From UHGV virus genome UHGV-0162601: a stretch of 37,895 nucleotides of DNA; one strand, written 5' to 3'. The DNA comes from a virus. Positions 1-37,895 of the stretch are shown here, in pieces (the first letter of the stretch is position 1; every line of letters starts with the position of its first letter). Below the pieces are notes generated by a model. That model was not told where the DNA came from, did not search any database, and worked only from the letters and a program-made list of their open reading frames with translations. A program made the translations under genes and the position numbers.

Positions 1-101
1 AATACGATATCTTTGATTCCTAGTTTCTTCAGATTAGTTAAACAAACTTCAAGCTTCCATTTAAACCGATTGATTGCCGGCTGACAAAGAATATACTTCA
101 T
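1..101 (-). CDS. N-terminal part (33 codons) of a GT8-like glycosyltransferase gene that continues in frame at 37895 if the window is circular
   Basis: ATG at 101-99 preceded by AGGTGA (112-107). The frame is open to position 1 (MKYILCQPAINRFKWKLEVCLTNLKKLGIKDIV). The last 2 nt plus the complement of 37895 form a TTG codon and the frame continues without a stop into ORF 37121..37828. Confidence 0.5.
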   Translation of the reverse strand, partial: MKYILCQPAINRFKWKLEVCLTNLKKLGIKDIV

Positions 102-110
102 TCTGATCAC

Positions 111-1271
111 CTACGCTTGTGTTGTAGTTGTTGTGGTTGTTGGTTTTGTAGTTGTAGTAGTAGTTCCCAAAGCGCTAATATCTAATACAATGAAACTATC
201 ATTACGTTTAGGTTGTCCGTTTGCATATTGTTTAGCTAGATAAATGCGTTCGTCTTCAACAAAATGGTATTCATCTGAAGCTTCAATTTTTAGCGTAGAT
301 CCTACACCCATGAAGTAATCTGAAGCTACCCCAATAACTGCTTTTCCTTCTGGCACAGCTGTTGACTGCAAGTCTGAAACTGGTACTGGCAATACTTGTA
401 CATATTCTCCATTAGCAGTTAGTACGGTTTTAGCTGGGAAAACTTTAGACCAGTAATCTGTTGGATTCACAATTAGGACCACATCAGAAGGATTTACATT
501 ACGATAAATCGGATCATCTACGCCTTCGATATTGAATTTTGATAGTCGTGCCATCAAACCACCCATCGTTGCAGCATCTAATGCTGTAATAGGTTCTGCT
601 GTTTTTTCAGCATATTCTCCGCTAGTTTGTTTGCTCATGTCACGCATCATTCCGACTGGCATATCTTTACCAGTACCATCAACAATTGCTTGTTCTAATG
701 CAATTCTCAATGATTCTACTAGAACAGTACGGACATAACGATCTAACCATACTGGACCTAAGTCAAGCATTGCCTTACATACAGGAATATAACCTGATAG
801 CTTGAACTGCTTCATGTTAATTACGTCAAAGCCATTATCTAAAACTTTTTTAACAGCTTCGCACAGTTTTCCCCACCATGCTGGATTGACTCCACGTGAC
901 ACAATCCATTCTGTTACACCAGTTGTGTTAACAAAAGTAATTTTTTGCAACAGTGGATGAGATTGTTCTAGATCTTCAAATACGCGTTCAAATACAGTAG
1001 CTGGTACTAATTCTTCAACTCCTGCAAAACCTTCGTTATTCACTACTTCGTTATAGAATTTTGTTTCTTGTGTAGTTAGTACACGCTGACCACGGTTCAT
1101 TAATACTAATTGATCTTGATTTTTTGCTGTTGCTTCTTCTAAAATTTTATCCTGTATTTCCTTAGATAAACTTACCATAGCTGCGCTAAAAGACTCTTCG
1201 TTACCATCTTTAAAAGCTTTCATCAATTGGTCGCTTGCAGCTGTTACACCTTTTAAATTTTTAACTGTCAT
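111..1271 (-). CDS. major capsid protein, HK97 family, with C-terminal ...TTTTTTKPTTTTTTTQA tail
   Basis: 386 aa, position after the ClpP-like protease, and typical HK97-fold MCP length. The C-terminal poly-Thr uses mixed ACN codons. Confidence 0.85.
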   Translation of the reverse strand: MTVKNLKGVTAASDQLMKAFKDGNEESFSAAMVSLSKEIQDKILEEATAKNQDQLVLMNRGQRVLTTQETKFYNEVVNNEGFAGVEELVPATVFERVFEDLEQSHPLLQKITFVNTTGVTEWIVSRGVNPAWWGKLCEAVKKVLDNGFDVINMKQFKLSGYIPVCKAMLDLGPVWLDRYVRTVLVESLRIALEQAIVDGTGKDMPVGMMRDMSKQTSGEYAEKTAEPITALDAATMGGLMARLSKFNIEGVDDPIYRNVNPSDVVLIVNPTDYWSKVFPAKTVLTANGEYVQVLPVPVSDLQSTAVPEGKAVIGVASDYFMGVGSTLKIEASDEYHFVEDERIYLAKQYANGQPKRNDSFIVLDISALGTTTTTTKPTTTTTTTQA

Positions 1272-7494: not shown

Positions 7495-7881
7495 TTATGC
7501 GTCAGTCACTATACAAAGTTTGTCTTTGACCTTTAAAGCACAAACACTATAATAGTAGCCACCATTCCCATCATCCGCTGTGCATTCTGCTTTAGCGATC
7601 TCATTACGATTATGATAAACAACGACTTCAGCATAAGAGGTATGTCCGTCACCATTATATTCATACTTACCTTTGTCAAATATTTTTATATCTGTAATAA
7701 CCGCGTCAAGTTTTACATTTTTGAATTCACCCCCAGCCCATGCGCAACAATCATACTCGCTACATACAACTTCTAATTTTGTTCCATCTTCTAAAATTAA
7801 TTCACTCTCAGACCATTCTACGATTTTTTTGAAAATAAGATCTTTTTTCAACTCTTTCAATGATACATAATCTTTCCACAT
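7495..7881 (-). CDS. hypothetical Cys-rich protein (128 aa)
   Basis: ORF only. Located downstream of ArpU. Confidence 0.55.
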   Translation of the reverse strand: MWKDYVSLKELKKDLIFKKIVEWSESELILEDGTKLEVVCSEYDCCAWAGGEFKNVKLDAVITDIKIFDKGKYEYNGDGHTSYAEVVVYHNRNEIAKAECTADDGNGGYYYSVCALKVKDKLCIVTDA

Positions 7882-7893
7882 TATATAGTCCTC

Positions 7894-8310
7894 CTATTTA
7901 TAAGCAATTATTTTCCCATGTTTATATGCTTCTGCAAACTCTATCAGAGCTTCCGACTTCATCCGTTGTATGCTTCTTTCTGAATAACCCACTTCACGGC
8001 TAATCCTGTAGTTTGAGAAGCTATCTGGCACACAAAAGCTGTAGTAGAGTATCTGACGACTAATCAGACTAAGCGCCATCAAAGCCGCTAGAATCGCGTC
8101 TCTCTCCGCTTCTATATCCATCATTTGAATGATCGCGTCTTCTGCCTTATTGCCGTGCTTCGGTGCCTTCGGCATATCCGTAATAATTGGCGACTTAATA
8201 TCTATCAAAGAGCGACCTGCCATCCGCTCCAAACGCCGAAAGTTCTTCAGCACATCTCTCGCATTACATCTTGTCTGTTTGAAATCTACCTCTCGTAACA
8301 ATTGCATCAA
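7894..8310 (-). CDS. arpU: ArpU-family late transcriptional regulator
   Basis: About 138 aa with a sigma-region-4-like C-terminus. Canonical position immediately upstream of the packaging module in Firmicutes phages. Confidence 0.75.
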   Translation of the reverse strand: MMQLLREVDFKQTRCNARDVLKNFRRLERMAGRSLIDIKSPIITDMPKAPKHGNKAEDAIIQMMDIEAERDAILAALMALSLISRQILYYSFCVPDSFSNYRISREVGYSERSIQRMKSEALIEFAEAYKHGKIIAYK

Positions 8311-12896: not shown

Positions 12897-13571
12897 TCAC
12901 TTCTTATCTAATTCTTTTCTCTTAGCTGCTATTGCTCGCTCCATCAAGGCACATTGCTCATAGCTTAACTGTTCAATAGTTTCAACGTTGTCAGCTAAGA
13001 GCCCTAATTTATCTGTCTGCTCATTAACATATTCGATTAAGGTTTTGGTCATATCTTTACCCATCTGCTCATTGAAAGCTTCTAGAATCGTCTCTAGCAT
13101 GCTTAATTTCTTTGTATCGATTCTAGGTGGTGTTGGAATATCTTCCCCTTGAAATACATATAATCCCAGTCCGTGTAGAGCCAATGCTTTCACAAAGCAT
13201 CGCTTCAATGAGTTATTGATTTGCATAGCATTTGGTTTAACAACTGGTTGGTTTCGATAATCTAAAACAGGAAATAACTCTGTTTCCGTATGTCCTTTAA
13301 CCGTTACTGAGACAGATACATAAGTCCCTGTTTCATCCATAAGAAAAGGTTTGTATTCCTCAACAAGAAAGTCTTGATGAGTTCCAGAAACAACTCTGTA
13401 GTGTTTGTACTCATTAATAGTTACCGTTGCCTGTGGATCATTCTTTTTCATAATCTCCCATGCGTGAGCCCAAGATAAATAATCAAAATTTCCTTTTTTC
13501 TTGAGAATTTTATTTAACTTGCGACTAAAAAGTTTTTCAAAAGTCGATGTCCCTTTGCTTTCACTCATCAA
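12897..13571 (-). CDS. putative Rad52-like single-strand annealing protein (Sak/DUF1071-like)
   Basis: Position in the recombination/replication module and size. Start probably MSESKG after GGAGG. Weak pattern recognition only. Confidence 0.35.
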   Translation of the reverse strand: MMSESKGTSTFEKLFSRKLNKILKKKGNFDYLSWAHAWEIMKKNDPQATVTINEYKHYRVVSGTHQDFLVEEYKPFLMDETGTYVSVSVTVKGHTETELFPVLDYRNQPVVKPNAMQINNSLKRCFVKALALHGLGLYVFQGEDIPTPPRIDTKKLSMLETILEAFNEQMGKDMTKTLIEYVNEQTDKLGLLADNVETIEQLSYEQCALMERAIAAKRKELDKK

Positions 13572-13902
13572 ATTCTGCCTCCATTTCAGCAATGTATTTC
13601 TTACCTGATCCGTAATAAGAGATATCAATCAAGTTATCTCTGTCGTACTCTTCTAATGCATCAGTCAAGCCATCTTCGATGACGTAAATATATTCAGGTT
13701 TGTTTGAATGTTTTGATAGATGTATAAGGTAAACATGATCCCAAATACTCACAAAATTTCCCAAGTCATCTTGATCACATGATAGTTCTTCATTCGTCAA
13801 AAGATTACGTCTGATTTTTCGATTGCTTGTTTCCTTGATATTCGATTTACCCCAACTAGGATCAGTCAAATATTGATCTAGAGTGGAAAGTTCTTTTTCC
13901 AT
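13561..13902 (-). CDS. hypothetical protein
   Basis: 113 aa ORF with an RBS. Confidence 0.5.
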   Translation of the reverse strand: MEKELSTLDQYLTDPSWGKSNIKETSNRKIRRNLLTNEELSCDQDDLGNFVSIWDHVYLIHLSKHSNKPEYIYVIEDGLTDALEEYDRDNLIDISYYGSGKKYIAEMEAEFDE

Positions 13903-13934
13903 ATGCTAAAATCTCCTTATGATGTGTTTTCTTT

Positions 13935-13968
13935 GTGACTCTATGCTTGCCGGCTGAGTCACTTTTTT
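13935..13968 (+). terminator. hairpin gtgactc ... gagtcac + T6 (rightward-facing)
   Basis: 7-bp stem, 14-nt loop, tttttt. Confidence 0.4.
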
Positions 13969-14079
13969 ATTTGTTGCCAAGCTTTTTGCTTATCAATATG
14001 TTGTTGGCTTAGGATGCTTGGTTTATTGTGTCTCCACCAGCGATTAGCAATTATTACGCCTGTTTTTAGCGCTTCAGCT

Positions 14080-14837: not shown

Positions 14838-15620
14838 TTGGATATTTCAGATACTCCTTATTATCAAAAATTGATAGCTTCTTCAAAATTAATCGGTGAA
14901 ACCATTGCTCCTTCTCTAGATGTCGTTAACGCTATGCAGCCTGCGATAGAACAAGCTAAAAAATTAATTGCAATTCAAGATACTTTTATAGCTTCGCAAG
15001 CAATACTCAATGATTCTCTCATTCAAATTGTCGAGAAACGTAACAAATCTATTGCTAATATGATTCCTCCTTCTTTGTTCGCAATACAGAAACAATTAGA
15101 ATCTCCAAGTTTTAATATTGCTAAAAAAATGGCAGCTACTATGCCAAAACCTTATTTTTCTGATATCTCTAAAATCACAGAAAAATTTGCCGTTGACATG
15201 TCTAAGTACGACTTCAGAATAGGGGTAGCTACCCAAGAATTAGAAAAAGCATTTTCTTCCGAACCGGAAGTTAGTACAAAAAATCTACTTTTTAAAGACA
15301 CTTCTAATCCATCTGATGAGTTTGAGGCTAAGTTTTTTGATATCCTTAATGAGCAAAGGAAAGTCCTTGATGATTCTATAAAGCTTTTTGAAGAAATAAA
15401 TACAGCCAAGAACAAAGATATAACTAATGAACCATCTGAAAAACAACAAGCTTCACCTGCTTTCTACAAAGATAAAATGTGGTATTTAGAGCAAACTGGG
15501 GCAGCTTTGATAGGACTAGTAGTAACCGAAATTGTAAATATAACTATTGGAGTAGATCCTAACAATACAATTTCATTAGCTTTATTTTTGCGTTATTTGT
15601 TACAATTTTTAATTAATTAG
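14838..15620 (+). CDS. hypothetical protein with C-terminal TM helix, opposite-strand moron in the early region
   Basis: 260 aa, TTG start after AAAGGTGG, own promoter and terminator. Confidence 0.55.
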   Translation: MDISDTPYYQKLIASSKLIGETIAPSLDVVNAMQPAIEQAKKLIAIQDTFIASQAILNDSLIQIVEKRNKSIANMIPPSLFAIQKQLESPSFNIAKKMAATMPKPYFSDISKITEKFAVDMSKYDFRIGVATQELEKAFSSEPEVSTKNLLFKDTSNPSDEFEAKFFDILNEQRKVLDDSIKLFEEINTAKNKDITNEPSEKQQASPAFYKDKMWYLEQTGAALIGLVVTEIVNITIGVDPNNTISLALFLRYLLQFLIN

Positions 15621-35064: not shown

Positions 35065-35670
35065 TTAAGCTTGAGTCGTTGTAGTAGTGGTTGTTGAACT
35101 CTTTTTAATCACATCAGCAGATAGATTCGTCATCCATTGATCTGTTAAGTCTTCTTCAAGTTCTGCAACAATTGCTTCATGATAGAATTTACCAAATTCA
35201 TCTTGCATAACTTTTGTTTCTAGTTCTAAAGCAGCTACTTCATCCGCACCATTTTCAATAGAGAATGTTAATCCTGTATTCGAAGTGCATGCTAACATAC
35301 CAACTAACTTGCTATTTTCTTCGAAGTCATCCACGATCTCTGCAGCAAGTGAGAAATCTTCGCCTACGGAATCAGGACCGTAAGAGTAAATGCCTGGTTT
35401 AATACGTTCATCTTGTTTCAACCCATTGAAACGTCGATAAACTTCCATCGGTACATGTGCAGTAATTGTTACCGTCATATTGATTGGTTTAGATTTTGAT
35501 TTTACTTCTGTCGCTCCACATTTTTTAACCACCGTTTGCATTTCTGTTTCGCCATCTAATTGTCCGTTACAATCTGTTGCGATTGCATTTTCTGCATTCT
35601 TAAAATTAAAAGCAATTCGTTTGATACTCACGTTATCGAACGTTGTTACTACAGTTGTTGTTTTAGCCAT
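35065..35670 (-). CDS. major tail protein with C-terminal ...SSTTTTTTTQA tail
   Basis: 201 aa, position upstream of the G/GT chaperones. The poly-Thr uses mixed codons (ACT/ACG/ACA/ACC). Confidence 0.8.
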   Translation of the reverse strand: MAKTTTVVTTFDNVSIKRIAFNFKNAENAIATDCNGQLDGETEMQTVVKKCGATEVKSKSKPINMTVTITAHVPMEVYRRFNGLKQDERIKPGIYSYGPDSVGEDFSLAAEIVDDFEENSKLVGMLACTSNTGLTFSIENGADEVAALELETKVMQDEFGKFYHEAIVAELEEDLTDQWMTNLSADVIKKSSTTTTTTTQA

Positions 35671-35681
35671 TGTTGTTCCTC

Positions 35682-36095
35682 CTATTTATTTAATTTATCG
35701 AATTGACGAATCAGAAGTTCTGTAATTGGATCAAGTGCAAGACCTAATCCTCTTCTCATGAATTCGTCTGGCTGATTTCTTTTAGAAGTACCTATCCCCA
35801 AATCAGGATATTTTAAATACTCAAATTTTCTTGTAGGTCTAATGATGAAACCCAAATTAATATATTGAGTCTTAAGTGGACGACTATTTTTTGCGTGTTG
35901 GTGTCCTCTTCTTAAATCTGCTTCAGAAACAGGAATTTTTTCTGTAATCCTATCCACTGCAATAGCCGAACCCTTCGATTTCAATGCTTCATTGATCAGT
36001 CGTTCACTCTCGCTTGAATAGCGTTCCATCCGCACAAGAAGTTCATCATGCCCATTTATTTTTAGCTCCCAACTATTTTTAGCCATGACAATCAC
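35682..36095 (-). CDS. tail terminator / tail-completion neck protein
   Basis: 137 aa, position immediately upstream of the major tail gene. Confidence 0.45.
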   Translation of the reverse strand: MIVMAKNSWELKINGHDELLVRMERYSSESERLINEALKSKGSAIAVDRITEKIPVSEADLRRGHQHAKNSRPLKTQYINLGFIIRPTRKFEYLKYPDLGIGTSKRNQPDEFMRRGLGLALDPITELLIRQFDKLNK

Positions 36096-36480
36096 TCTTC
36101 AATAATCGTCTAAACGTAAATACCAATTGATCGATATAGCGATCTTGATTTTCTAGTTTTAAATGGTTGGGATCCATTCTCTGAAAACGAATCGAACGAT
36201 TTTGAATCAATGAAATAATATCTAGTGAATCTCCTGTTAAATCTTCTCTATTTTCTGAATAGAAAGTTAGATATAGATTTTGACCCACGCTATATTTTGG
36301 TTCAGTGATCATTTCTATTTCTCCTGTTTCGAGAATGAAGTAATTAAAATCATCAGGTAGCTCATCCTCGCCAACAGAGTCTTGAAAGAGTTTGAGCTTA
36401 AAATGTTCTTCTAAGGAAGTTTTGATAGCAGAAATTTGCTTATTTAAACGTTCTTTTTCTTTAGAATTATCAATAACCAT
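36079..36480 (-). CDS. neck protein (HK97 gp10-like tail-to-head joining)
   Basis: 133 aa from MVIDNSKEKERL after RBS GGGTGA. Position. Confidence 0.45.
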   Translation of the reverse strand: MVIDNSKEKERLNKQISAIKTSLEEHFKLKLFQDSVGEDELPDDFNYFILETGEIEMITEPKYSVGQNLYLTFYSENREDLTGDSLDIISLIQNRSIRFQRMDPNHLKLENQDRYIDQLVFTFRRLLKSDCHG

Positions 36481-36826
36481 ATTCACCCACACTTTCAAGA
36501 TAAAAATAGATATAAAAATTATCGTAATCGGCATAGATAACGTTGTAACGCATACTATCGATTACGATAAAATATTGATCTTTATTAAATTTCTTGGCGA
36601 TCGGATGAAATGGAGTCTTTACTTTCTTAGTTAATTTCGATCCCATCGCATCCATAGCTGTTATATCACTATCTCTCATGGAAAGATTTCTAAATTTTAA
36701 AGAAGTGATTTCTGTATCTTCTACACCAATCTTTTTTCCTAGTTCATTTCTTTTGGTAGTTTGCGTCAAAATCTTTAACCAACCATCGTTGAATGTTTCT
36801 TCGAGTCTACGATTATTCGCCATTCC
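36470..36826 (-). CDS. head closure protein
   Basis: 118 aa from MANNRRLEE after AGGTGA. Start overlaps the upstream stop. Confidence 0.45.
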   Translation of the reverse strand, partial: GMANNRRLEETFNDGWLKILTQTTKRNELGKKIGVEDTEITSLKFRNLSMRDSDITAMDAMGSKLTKKVKTPFHPIAKKFNKDQYFIVIDSMRYNVIYADYDNFYIYFYLESVGEYGY

Positions 36827-37124
36827 CATCACCTGCAATATATTCTTGTAGCGCATAATGTTGAATGAAACCTAATAACTCACTAGCGAAATTTTGTTCA
36901 AACTCATCTAAAGCACGATTCCAGTCGTATCTACATCTTTCGATTAGCAATCCGTATTCTAAGCTTTCAGGAGAAAAAGAAAGTGTTGTACTCACTTTAC
37001 TTTGAAGATAAACAGCATTTTTAGCTATCATCTTTTTAATTGACTCATCTTCTTCGTTCCAGGTAACGTAAATATTATCCTTCACAGCTATTAGCAATTC
37101 TTCAGTCACTTGTTCAGGCGTCAT
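36813..37124 (-). CDS. head-tail connector (gp6-like adaptor)
   Basis: 103 aa, first small gene after the capsid/GT genes. Confidence 0.5.
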   Translation of the reverse strand: MTPEQVTEELLIAVKDNIYVTWNEEDESIKKMIAKNAVYLQSKVSTTLSFSPESLEYGLLIERCRYDWNRALDEFEQNFASELLGFIQHYALQEYIAGDGNGE

Positions 37125-37895
37125 CTAACCACCGCCTTAATTGCTTTAACATATGCGTAAGAGCATTTTTTCTTGTTTACAAATGATAAATCTTCATCAA
37201 AAGGCGTGGAAGTAACGTATCTCCCTTTGAAAAATAAATCTTCATCATTTGTTGTTACTCCAGCGTTATGCAAGATTTTTACTTCTTTAAATTTTTCTAT
37301 TGGATCAGTAGCAAAACAAAAGTTTAATTCCTCGTGAACTTTAGGACCAATATTGAAATACATCATGTTCCAAAGCTGTGCCCACATCTCGGCTGTCCAA
37401 ATCTGTACATTTGTTTTTTGCCCTCTAAGGTAGCGATATAGCCGATTAGAATCCAGATAAACCTTTTTCCAATAATTCGCTTTAGGACGGTTAATAACCC
37501 ACTGTGCGCCTCCTGAATTAGTGTTTATAGTTTCCAAAGATTCTACTCTAACATTTACAATATTTGCCATATCTTTTAGAATATTTTCTCCGTTTTCACA
37601 GCTTCTAATATAATCAAGACTTAGATAACTACAGCAGTCGCTACAATACCAAACATCATCTTTAGAAGGCAATTTGCGCAAATTAATTCTTTTATTGAAA
37701 ATGACATCCGAATCGATATAGAAATATCGGTCGTCCTCACGCGAATGATCTTCTTCTAAATATTTCCACCATAAATATGGTTTAATCGAAGGAATATACT
37801 CTTTGTCGTCCCGCAGATCATCGTACACATGAACTTCAACGCCATATTCCTTCTCAAAAAAAATAGGAATCTGATCATCGTGTCTGCTGAAAAGC
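37121..37895 (-). CDS. GT8-family (LgtC/RfaJ-like, GT-A fold) glycosyltransferase, 5' end runs off the window edge and continues at 1..101
   Basis: DxD motif in RYFYIDSDVIF matches GT8 LYLDSDIIV. Downstream NTNSGGAQWVINRPKANYWKK matches GT8 FNSGVLLINLKKWR. The frame is open to 37895. Confidence 0.5.
   Translation of the reverse strand, partial: LFSRHDDQIPIFFEKEYGVEVHVYDDLRDDKEYIPSIKPYLWWKYLEEDHSREDDRYFYIDSDVIFNKRINLRKLPSKDDVWYCSDCCSYLSLDYIRSCENGENILKDMANIVNVRVESLETINTNSGGAQWVINRPKANYWKKVYLDSNRLYRYLRGQKTNVQIWTAEMWAQLWNMMYFNIGPKVHEELNFCFATDPIEKFKEVKILHNAGVTTNDEDLFFKGRYVTSTPFDEDLSFVNKKKCSYAYVKAIKAVVR

Follow-up and report, generated by a model that had tools for sequence, protein, structure and literature searches.

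The window analyzed here is the entire 37,895-nucleotide stretch of the virus genome UHGV-0162601, which is a circularly permuted phage genome, and the subject of this report is a gene within it that follows the major capsid protein gene and encodes a member of the protein family phrog_4417. We consider it likely, with a probability of about 0.7, that this protein is a dedicated O-glycosyltransferase that decorates the C-terminal poly-threonine tags of the capsid and tail-tube proteins. The gene is intact and translationally coupled to its neighbors, its product is predicted to adopt a GT-A fold and carries invariant residues of a catalytic type, and poly-threonine tails are linked to the gene in a near-universal manner across phage genomes. 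A virion-glycosylating enzyme had been proposed as one candidate function in the initial annotation of the window, and the case for it is now much stronger, with matching tails found on both capsid and tube and the pairing of enzyme and tails kept across dozens of unrelated Firmicutes phages.

The putative transferase gene and the tails in the window

The transferase gene is located on the minus strand, as is every gene at both window ends, and it runs across the point where these ends meet. It begins with an ATG at 101-99, proceeds to position 1, resumes at position 37895 and ends in frame with a TGA stop at 37123-37121. The N-terminal 33 codons thus lie at 1..101 and the C-terminal 258 codons plus the stop at 37121..37895, the latter segment being the one that was initially delineated and the one that carries the DxD aspartates (D95, D97) and the motifs GGAQW, QxWTAEMW, HNAG (H243) and FFKG (K257). 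The open reading frame (ORF) is intact because related contigs align without gaps across the window ends: a 600-nucleotide stretch covering the window end and start is 98.7-99.8% identical to three of them, and an assembly artefact at the junction can accordingly be rejected. The same coding sequence (CDS) (WIL01588.1, 'hypothetical protein') is found in Enterococcus phage 4995_1, which is a temperate phage of E. faecium with 98.4% nucleotide identity to the window, and there it is flanked by the genes for the major capsid protein and a 103-amino-acid protein. The related contigs and this CDS uphold the contiguity that had been claimed for the joined ORF, whose reported length of 292 amino acids needs a minor correction, as the 876 nucleotides comprise 292 codons when the stop is included and the protein has 291 amino acids.

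The gene is tied closely to those on either side of it. Its Shine-Dalgarno sequence, AGGTGATC, as read from the minus strand at 105..112, is placed 3 nucleotides before the ATG and overlaps the capsid stop codon, TAG, at 111-113, while at the other end the TGA of the transferase gene and the ATG of the next gene overlap as ATGA (37124-37121). These two overlaps couple the gene to both of its neighbors within the late operon. The initial description of a co-oriented gene, adjacent to the capsid gene and with a ribosome-binding site overlapping the capsid stop, holds true in this respect, and the coupling can now be extended downstream to the connector gene.

The capsid gene itself (111..1271, minus strand) encodes a 386-amino-acid major capsid protein of the HK97 family, recognized by Pfam Phage_capsid over residues 88-364 (E 2e-16) and by phrog_10, major head protein (E 1e-63). 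Beyond the Pfam domain the protein ends in a poly-threonine tail, TTTTTTKPTTTTTTTQA, which is encoded at 114..164 on the minus strand, is absent from relatives without the transferase gene and represents a proposed acceptor tag. The second proposed acceptor tag, SSTTTTTTTQA (35068..35100, minus strand), forms the C-terminus of the major tail, or tube, protein, a protein of 201 amino acids encoded at 35065..35670 on the minus strand that matches phrog_117, major tail protein (E 7e-19), and whose gene precedes the chaperone and tape-measure genes. The last nine residues of the two tails are the same, and the C-termini, when read over a longer length, are ...ISALGTTTTTTKPTTTTTTTQA for the capsid protein and ...KKSSTTTTTTTQA for the major tail protein. 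Runs of at least five threonines are restricted to these two proteins among the 135 six-frame ORFs of the window. In near-identical relatives of the window phage, the DNA beneath the nine shared residues differs at synonymous sites, with 21 of the 27 nucleotides identical, and it is therefore the peptide rather than the DNA that is conserved. These same differences led us to reject a recent gene conversion as the origin of the matching ends.

Linkage of gene and tails across phages

The nearest capsid relatives that lack the transferase gene are found in phages BMBtp13, PK5.2, PSA, phiCD6356 and A40, where the capsid protein is 41-50% identical to that of the window phage. All five share the gene order TerL-portal-ClpP-capsid-gp6, with the capsid gene running straight into gp6, so that the transferase gene appears as an insertion absent from each of them; the initial remark that an enzyme gene is atypical at the capsid/connector position was well founded. 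A tblastn search of these syntenic relatives detected no homologue of the transferase (E>0.9), and a poly-threonine tail is absent from all of their 223 ORFs. Gene and tails thus appear and disappear together.

One of these relatives, Listeria phage PSA, has the same module and the same synteny, along with a capsid protein that is 50% identical, and its head and tail subunits also both receive a matching C-terminal appendage. In PSA, however, the annotation describes the products of cps and tsh as being extended by ribosomal slippage, which adds a peptide, and the phage has neither a transferase nor poly-threonine. This module seems repeatedly to have placed the same C-terminal appendage on both head and tail, through different solutions, as seen in Geobacillus PK5.2 (L089, 3981-5114 and 6845-7432), BMBtp13 (L088, 6001-7152 and 8615-9199) and Listeria PSA (L090, cps and tsh).

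The association was followed through 49 prophage loci from different GTDB species, which include Bacillaceae, Lactobacillaceae, Enterococcus, Staphylococcus, Listeria, Clostridium, Trichococcus, Anaerorhabdus and one Saccharimonadales metagenome-assembled genome (MAG). An ORF with a poly-threonine/serine tail ends within 300 nucleotides upstream of the homologue in 47 of the 49, and this ORF usually encodes a capsid or tail-tube protein, while at least one such tailed ORF is present on the same strand in 48. Tails are found on 92 of the 1596 ORFs that share the strand of the gene, as compared with 1 of 2231 on the opposite strand. Among IMG/VR relatives whose enzymes are 64-74% identical, the protein encoded upstream varies but always ends in poly-threonine, and a second virion protein shares its ending, giving the pairs SHA/SHA, KKA/KKA and KKV/KKV. 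Of 33 phages that have two long tailed proteins, 21 show the same residues beyond the last threonine run in both, whereas shuffling (2000 trials) reached 2.6 on average and 8 at most, and the DNA beneath such shared tag ends mostly differs at synonymous sites.

A similar picture is obtained from isolated phages. The gene directly follows that of the major tail protein in Lactococcus phage 1706, Clostridium phage phiCTP1 and Enterococcus phage phiFL1A, and it follows a small poly-threonine-tailed ORF annotated as 'major tail protein' in Staphylococcus phage PMBT8 and in the Herelleviridae myovirus Bacchae. Together with Enterococcus phage 9183, these phages have poly-threonine tails on capsid, decoration or tube proteins, and both of the tailed proteins in phage 1706 end in ...TTTTTHHD.

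Some of the tailed proteins are small. The ORF in PMBT8 (L086, 11606-11941) encodes 111 amino acids and ends in 16 threonines. In the Lactobacillus phage Bacchae (L087), the transferase gene is flanked by three small ORFs at 13051-13563, 13634-13996 and 14952-15161 (170, 120 and 69 amino acids from stop to stop), which consist mostly of threonine-rich repeats with poly-threonine ends, and one of which is annotated as 'major tail protein' though it has only about 115 amino acids. A group of Bacillaceae prophages (L110, L115-L118, L120, L123, L125, L127, L131, L132, L134 and L143, at ~7860-8220) encodes a third poly-threonine-tailed protein of ~102-113 amino acids just after the capsid gene, with slightly different end motifs (such as ...TTTTTTTTEGV, ...SGG or ...TVI); the tag may here extend to a protein of head decoration or of the connector.

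Homologues are found at the same structural position in virulent phages, including Bacchae of the Herelleviridae, Lactococcus phage 1706, an 86-kb Enterococcus Denvervirus and a Staphylococcus Sextaecvirus, and the pairing of enzyme and tails is alike in temperate and virulent phages. This distribution bears on the alternative function that had been offered initially, that of lysogenic conversion or superinfection exclusion, in which a cytoplasmic transferase would decorate the wall teichoic acid or another wall polymer of the host, with a changed phage receptor as the result. Prophages are known to encode transferases that act on wall polymers, such as TarP in S. aureus, and the window phage is temperate, with a close relative that has an integrase and a repressor, and encodes what is predicted to be a soluble GT-A enzyme. 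Enzymes of the TarP/Gtr type, however, would be looked for in a lysogeny or moron region and in temperate phages only, whereas the present gene is coupled within the late capsid-connector operon and has homologues in lytic phages such as the Herelleviridae. A role in wall modification would also leave the near-perfect poly-threonine linkage and the shared ends unexplained, and with the operon location and the virulent homologues in mind we regard it as quite improbable.

Predicted fold and family of the enzyme

The 291-amino-acid protein matches no family in Pfam (hmmscan, E<=10) and none in NCBIfam, and sequence searches of the PDB, both by phmmer with the single sequence and by hmmsearch with a 48-sequence profile, gave chance matches only (E>=0.17). 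It does match phrog_4417 of PHROGs over its full length (E 6e-155), a group described as of 'unknown function'. In the 90% database the phrog_4417-type family has 896 clusters, all of which are named either 'hypothetical' or 'prophage pi2 protein 34'; it is represented by 870 sequences at 50% clustering and is found in 560 viral contigs, and none of the members in 77 isolated phage records has a functional name. We found no account of this family or of poly-threonine tails in Firmicutes phages in the full-text literature, whose coverage excludes many subscription papers, and the paper describing phage Bacchae mentions neither the transferase gene nor the tails. The protein belongs to what is effectively an undescribed family of GT-A type.

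Structure prediction gave a model of very high confidence. The AlphaFold2 (AF2) model, obtained from 48 homologues, has a predicted local distance difference test score (pLDDT) of 96.6 and a predicted template modeling (pTM) score of 0.92, and it shows a single Rossmann-like alpha/beta/alpha domain in which D95-S-D97 comes right after the strand formed by residues 90-93, as in the GT-A superfamily of nucleotide-diphospho-sugar transferases, where a DxD follows the fourth strand. When compared with the PDB by Foldseek, the model gave 242 matches at E<=0.001, of which the best 50 are all glycosyltransferases; the matches listed are retaining GT-A enzymes, namely WbbM, the UGGT catalytic domain, ABO/alpha3GalT and glycogenin, with a best E of 5e-8, a template modeling (TM) score of ~0.5 and an identity of ~10%. 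GT8 enzymes are among the nearest solved structures. In the viral structure library BFVD, the close matches among the 50 best are confined to uncharacterised family members (TM 0.92, with LP65 orf49 at 0.79), and the next tier contains generic GT-A and GT8 proteins at a TM of ~0.5. From the model, we hold with high confidence that the protein has a GT-A glycosyltransferase fold.

Conservation was read over 61 members of the family, reaching down to ~32% identity, and over fused distant relatives as well. No variation is seen at D97, G163, W200, M204, H243, G246 and K257, and next to none at D95, A164, Q165 and Q198. They fall within the motifs Y-x-D-S-D, after strand 90-93, followed by GGAQ, W-x-A-[ED]-M-W, H-N-A-G and F-x-K, an order which is the same as that of the GT8 invariants YLDxD, YFNAG, DQD and HxxGxxK in an alignment of the LgtC family, for which the LgtC sequence was validated against PDB 1g9r. 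Both motifs quoted in the initial annotation, FYIDSDVIF and NTNSGGAQWVINRPKANYWKK, are found in the protein, and the DxD of the former is invariant or nearly so across the family. Judged from the order of motifs, the initial annotation's pairing of NSGGAQW with FNAGVLL of LgtC is plausible. The activity of the protein is a prediction and its family goes unrecognized by sequence models, which would be compatible with a catalytically dead glycosyltransferase fold that has been reused as an assembly factor or as a chaperone that binds threonine tails. Decayed enzymes, though, would not be expected to keep their DxD, His and Lys invariant down to ~30% identity and in fused relatives, nor does the frequent fusion to other transferase domains suit such a role, which we see as very unlikely.

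The relationship to GT8 itself is one of architecture. Identity between the phage protein and the GT8 enzymes LgtC (1g9r), glycogenin (3u2t) and S. pneumoniae GlyE (5gvv), which belong to PF01501, is ~11%. The phage family has GGAQW where GT8 has YFNAG and WxA[ED]MW where GT8 has DQD; H243-x-x-G246 and D95/D97 are kept, but K257 sits 14 residues after H243 and lacks the PW, whereas in the GT8 motif HxxGxxKPW the lysine follows the histidine by 6 residues. All true GT8 relatives of LgtC have PF01501, and the phage protein does not. Comparison by hhalign of 61 family members with 50 GT8 sequences gave a probability of 3.9% (P=0.011), which is not significant and at best marginal support, though columns 12-104, the N-terminal half, were placed on columns 10-111 with DxD on DxD, and a family alignment against the single LgtC sequence gave 2.5%. 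The comparison with the 50 GT8 sequences is taken from the -M first run only; runs with -M 50 and either -glob or -norealign were discarded as artefactual, their outputs being a single aligned column at '99.6%' and a 29-column alignment with 10% identity. The initial annotation had suggested a GT8-like enzyme, to be checked by a search with the Pfam Glyco_transf_8 hidden Markov model (HMM) and by structure prediction of the joined protein. The latter returned a GT-A fold, so that the assignment stands at the level of fold, whereas at the level of sequence it is not recovered, with no Pfam match at E<=10 and the low profile probability. We conclude that the protein is a GT-A enzyme whose architecture resembles that of GT8, and that no sequence criterion places it within this family.

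A second, recognized glycosyltransferase domain is present in 14 of 61 longer relatives (Glyco_transf_7C in 9, GT2 in 3, GT2_2 in 1 and GT6 in 1), and one further, distant member of this set (P0188, 658 amino acids) is fused to radical-SAM and SPASM domains, a module typical of peptide maturases. These fusion partners fit a role in sugar transfer, possibly one directed at peptides. In Enterococcus phage 9183, gp095 (L085, 11233-12102) was described by its annotators as resembling a 'PqqD family peptide modification chaperone', and together with the radical-SAM/SPASM fusion this hints at bacterial cousins of the family in the maturation of peptides that resemble ribosomally synthesized and post-translationally modified peptides (RiPPs). 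The family also extends beyond Firmicutes, as a 42%-identical homologue is found in a MAG contig of Candidatus Saccharimonadales, of the candidate phyla radiation (CPR), where it is placed after a protein that ends in ...AASTTTTT (L140, 9117-9983 and 10001-10870 for the two), and individual phage records attributed to Chryseobacterium and to Arcanobacterium carry a member as well.

Proposed mechanism, known systems and significance

The enzyme that we infer, with respect to its catalytic activity, acceptor, donor sugar, anomeric outcome and biological benefit, would be a soluble, cytoplasmic and metal-dependent protein with a retaining, GT8-like type of GT-A fold, produced stoichiometrically with the late structural proteins. 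A nucleotide sugar would be bound through a metal coordinated by the DxD and His residues, and through the Lys, and in the cytoplasm O-glycosylation would take place on the hydroxyls of the threonines in the exposed tags with which the capsid and tube proteins end. The C-terminal extensions of HK97-type capsid proteins and of siphovirus tube proteins are external, and head and tail would therefore carry a mucin-like sugar coat, seen on the assembled virion as a dense brush. No other glycosyltransferase gene is annotated in the near-identical relative, so that initiation of the glycan would fall to this enzyme. The benefit may lie in shielding from antibodies or proteases, or in adhesion.

A broader proposal, which we favor over its negation by a modest degree, is that a portable two-part tag-and-writer system occurs widely among Firmicutes phages. 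Its tag would be a genetically encoded C-terminal run of threonines with phage-specific ends that co-evolve within each phage, and it could mark any virion protein, be it capsid, tail tube or a small head protein; the writer would be the phrog_4417 GT-A enzyme, placing mucin-like O-glycans on head and tail, with the fused relatives building longer glycans.

Several points weigh against an O-glycosyltransferase acting on the tails. In Enterococcus phage 9183 the gene follows an untailed capsid protein and only the tail-tube protein has a tail, and one locus of the prophage set (L107) shows no tail at all. The co-occurrence is correlative, and the tails could be substrates of host enzymes or could serve another role. 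Sequence methods, whether Pfam, NCBIfam, PDB searches or the non-significant profile comparison with GT8, detect no glycosyltransferase family, and the mapping of the active site is drawn from the order of motifs. To our knowledge, protein-initiating O-glycosyltransferases with a GT8-like fold are uncommon, and several GT8 enzymes, such as GlyE, extend an existing sugar instead. Phage 9183 and L107 would also suit an active transferase with a different acceptor, be it a lipid, a small molecule or some other protein of virion or host, with the tails arising independently as flexible spacers, host-enzyme substrates or protease decoys. Such an enzyme would not explain why tails are confined to gene-carrying phages in every comparison made, being absent from the syntenic gene-free phages, nor why the gene usually comes directly after the tailed protein, whether this is a capsid, a tube or a small head protein, and we consider it unlikely.

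The neighborhood of the gene speaks to a final possibility, that the sugars are placed on hydroxymethylated bases of DNA as a protection against restriction. DNA-modifying glycosyltransferases of phages are well known (bioRxiv 10.1101/2023.12.21.572611), but no hydroxymethylase, TET, methyltransferase or other sugar genes are annotated in the 98%-identical relative, and the gene is located in the head-tail module rather than beside replication genes. DNA as acceptor would again leave the linkage with the tails without explanation. The classical T4 enzymes, moreover, are GT-B and not GT-A, and we give this possibility hardly any credence. The gene downstream of the transferase (36813..37124, minus strand), whose ATG overlaps the transferase stop, encodes a 103-amino-acid head-completion or connector-region protein (phrog_749) that is equivalent to the 'Gp6' encoded directly after the capsid gene in PSA-like relatives, and it is without a poly-threonine tail. 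Further along the minus strand, the ORFs at 36470-36856 and 36079-36534 overlap by 65 nucleotides; their counterparts in phage 4995_1, which is 98% identical, are annotated as shorter (354 and 402 nucleotides) with later starts, and the long upstream extensions are probably not translated.

We know of no phages other than mycobacteriophages in which glycosylation of the virion by phage-encoded enzymes has been shown. The reports concerned describe mycobacteriophages that attach sugars to the subunits of capsid and tail tube with transferases of their own, which alters recognition by antibodies (PMC12363180, PMC11256854, PMC13445384). The examples given there, Che8 gp110, Corndog gp38 and Myrna (Freeman et al. 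2023, as cited in PMC12363180 and PMC11256854), constitute the closest known system in function, in that a phage transferase is thought to modify capsid and tail-tube subunits to give a sugar-coated virion in both temperate and virulent phages. The present case shares with it a glycosyltransferase encoded by the phage itself, as assigned by fold. The two differ in their hosts, which are Actinobacteria for the mycobacteriophages and Firmicutes for the phrog_4417-type phages, in the proposed acceptor, a simple poly-threonine tag with phage-specific end residues in the latter, and in gene position, the transferase genes of mycobacteriophage Maravista lying near the 3' end of the genome and the phrog_4417 gene directly after that of the tagged protein. 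None of the mycobacteriophage transferases is among the 50 best BFVD structural neighbors of the phage enzyme, and the enzyme families are probably different as well. By analogy, then, the system would resemble mycobacteriophage virion glycosylation, but with an enzyme family and a tag that are undescribed. The capsid glycosylation of chlorovirus PBCV-1, with A64R, and of giant viruses concerns a eukaryotic virus in which atypical N-linked glycans are placed on folded surface sites of the capsid by many enzymes, whereas the phage studied here would employ one enzyme and a terminal poly-threonine tag.

If the proposal is true, a function would be provided for an unannotated PHROG, phrog_4417, and the glycosylation tag, being very short, transplantable and served by one cognate enzyme, would be attractive for glyco-engineering. 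Sugar-coated virions would be common in phages of Enterococcus, Staphylococcus, Listeria, dairy Lactococcus and Lactobacillus, Clostridium and many Bacillaceae, a breadth that is based on the 77 isolated phages, ~870 protein clusters and 560 viral contigs, and this would have a bearing on the pharmacology of phage therapy, on the behavior of phages in mucus and the gut, and on the biology of dairy phages.

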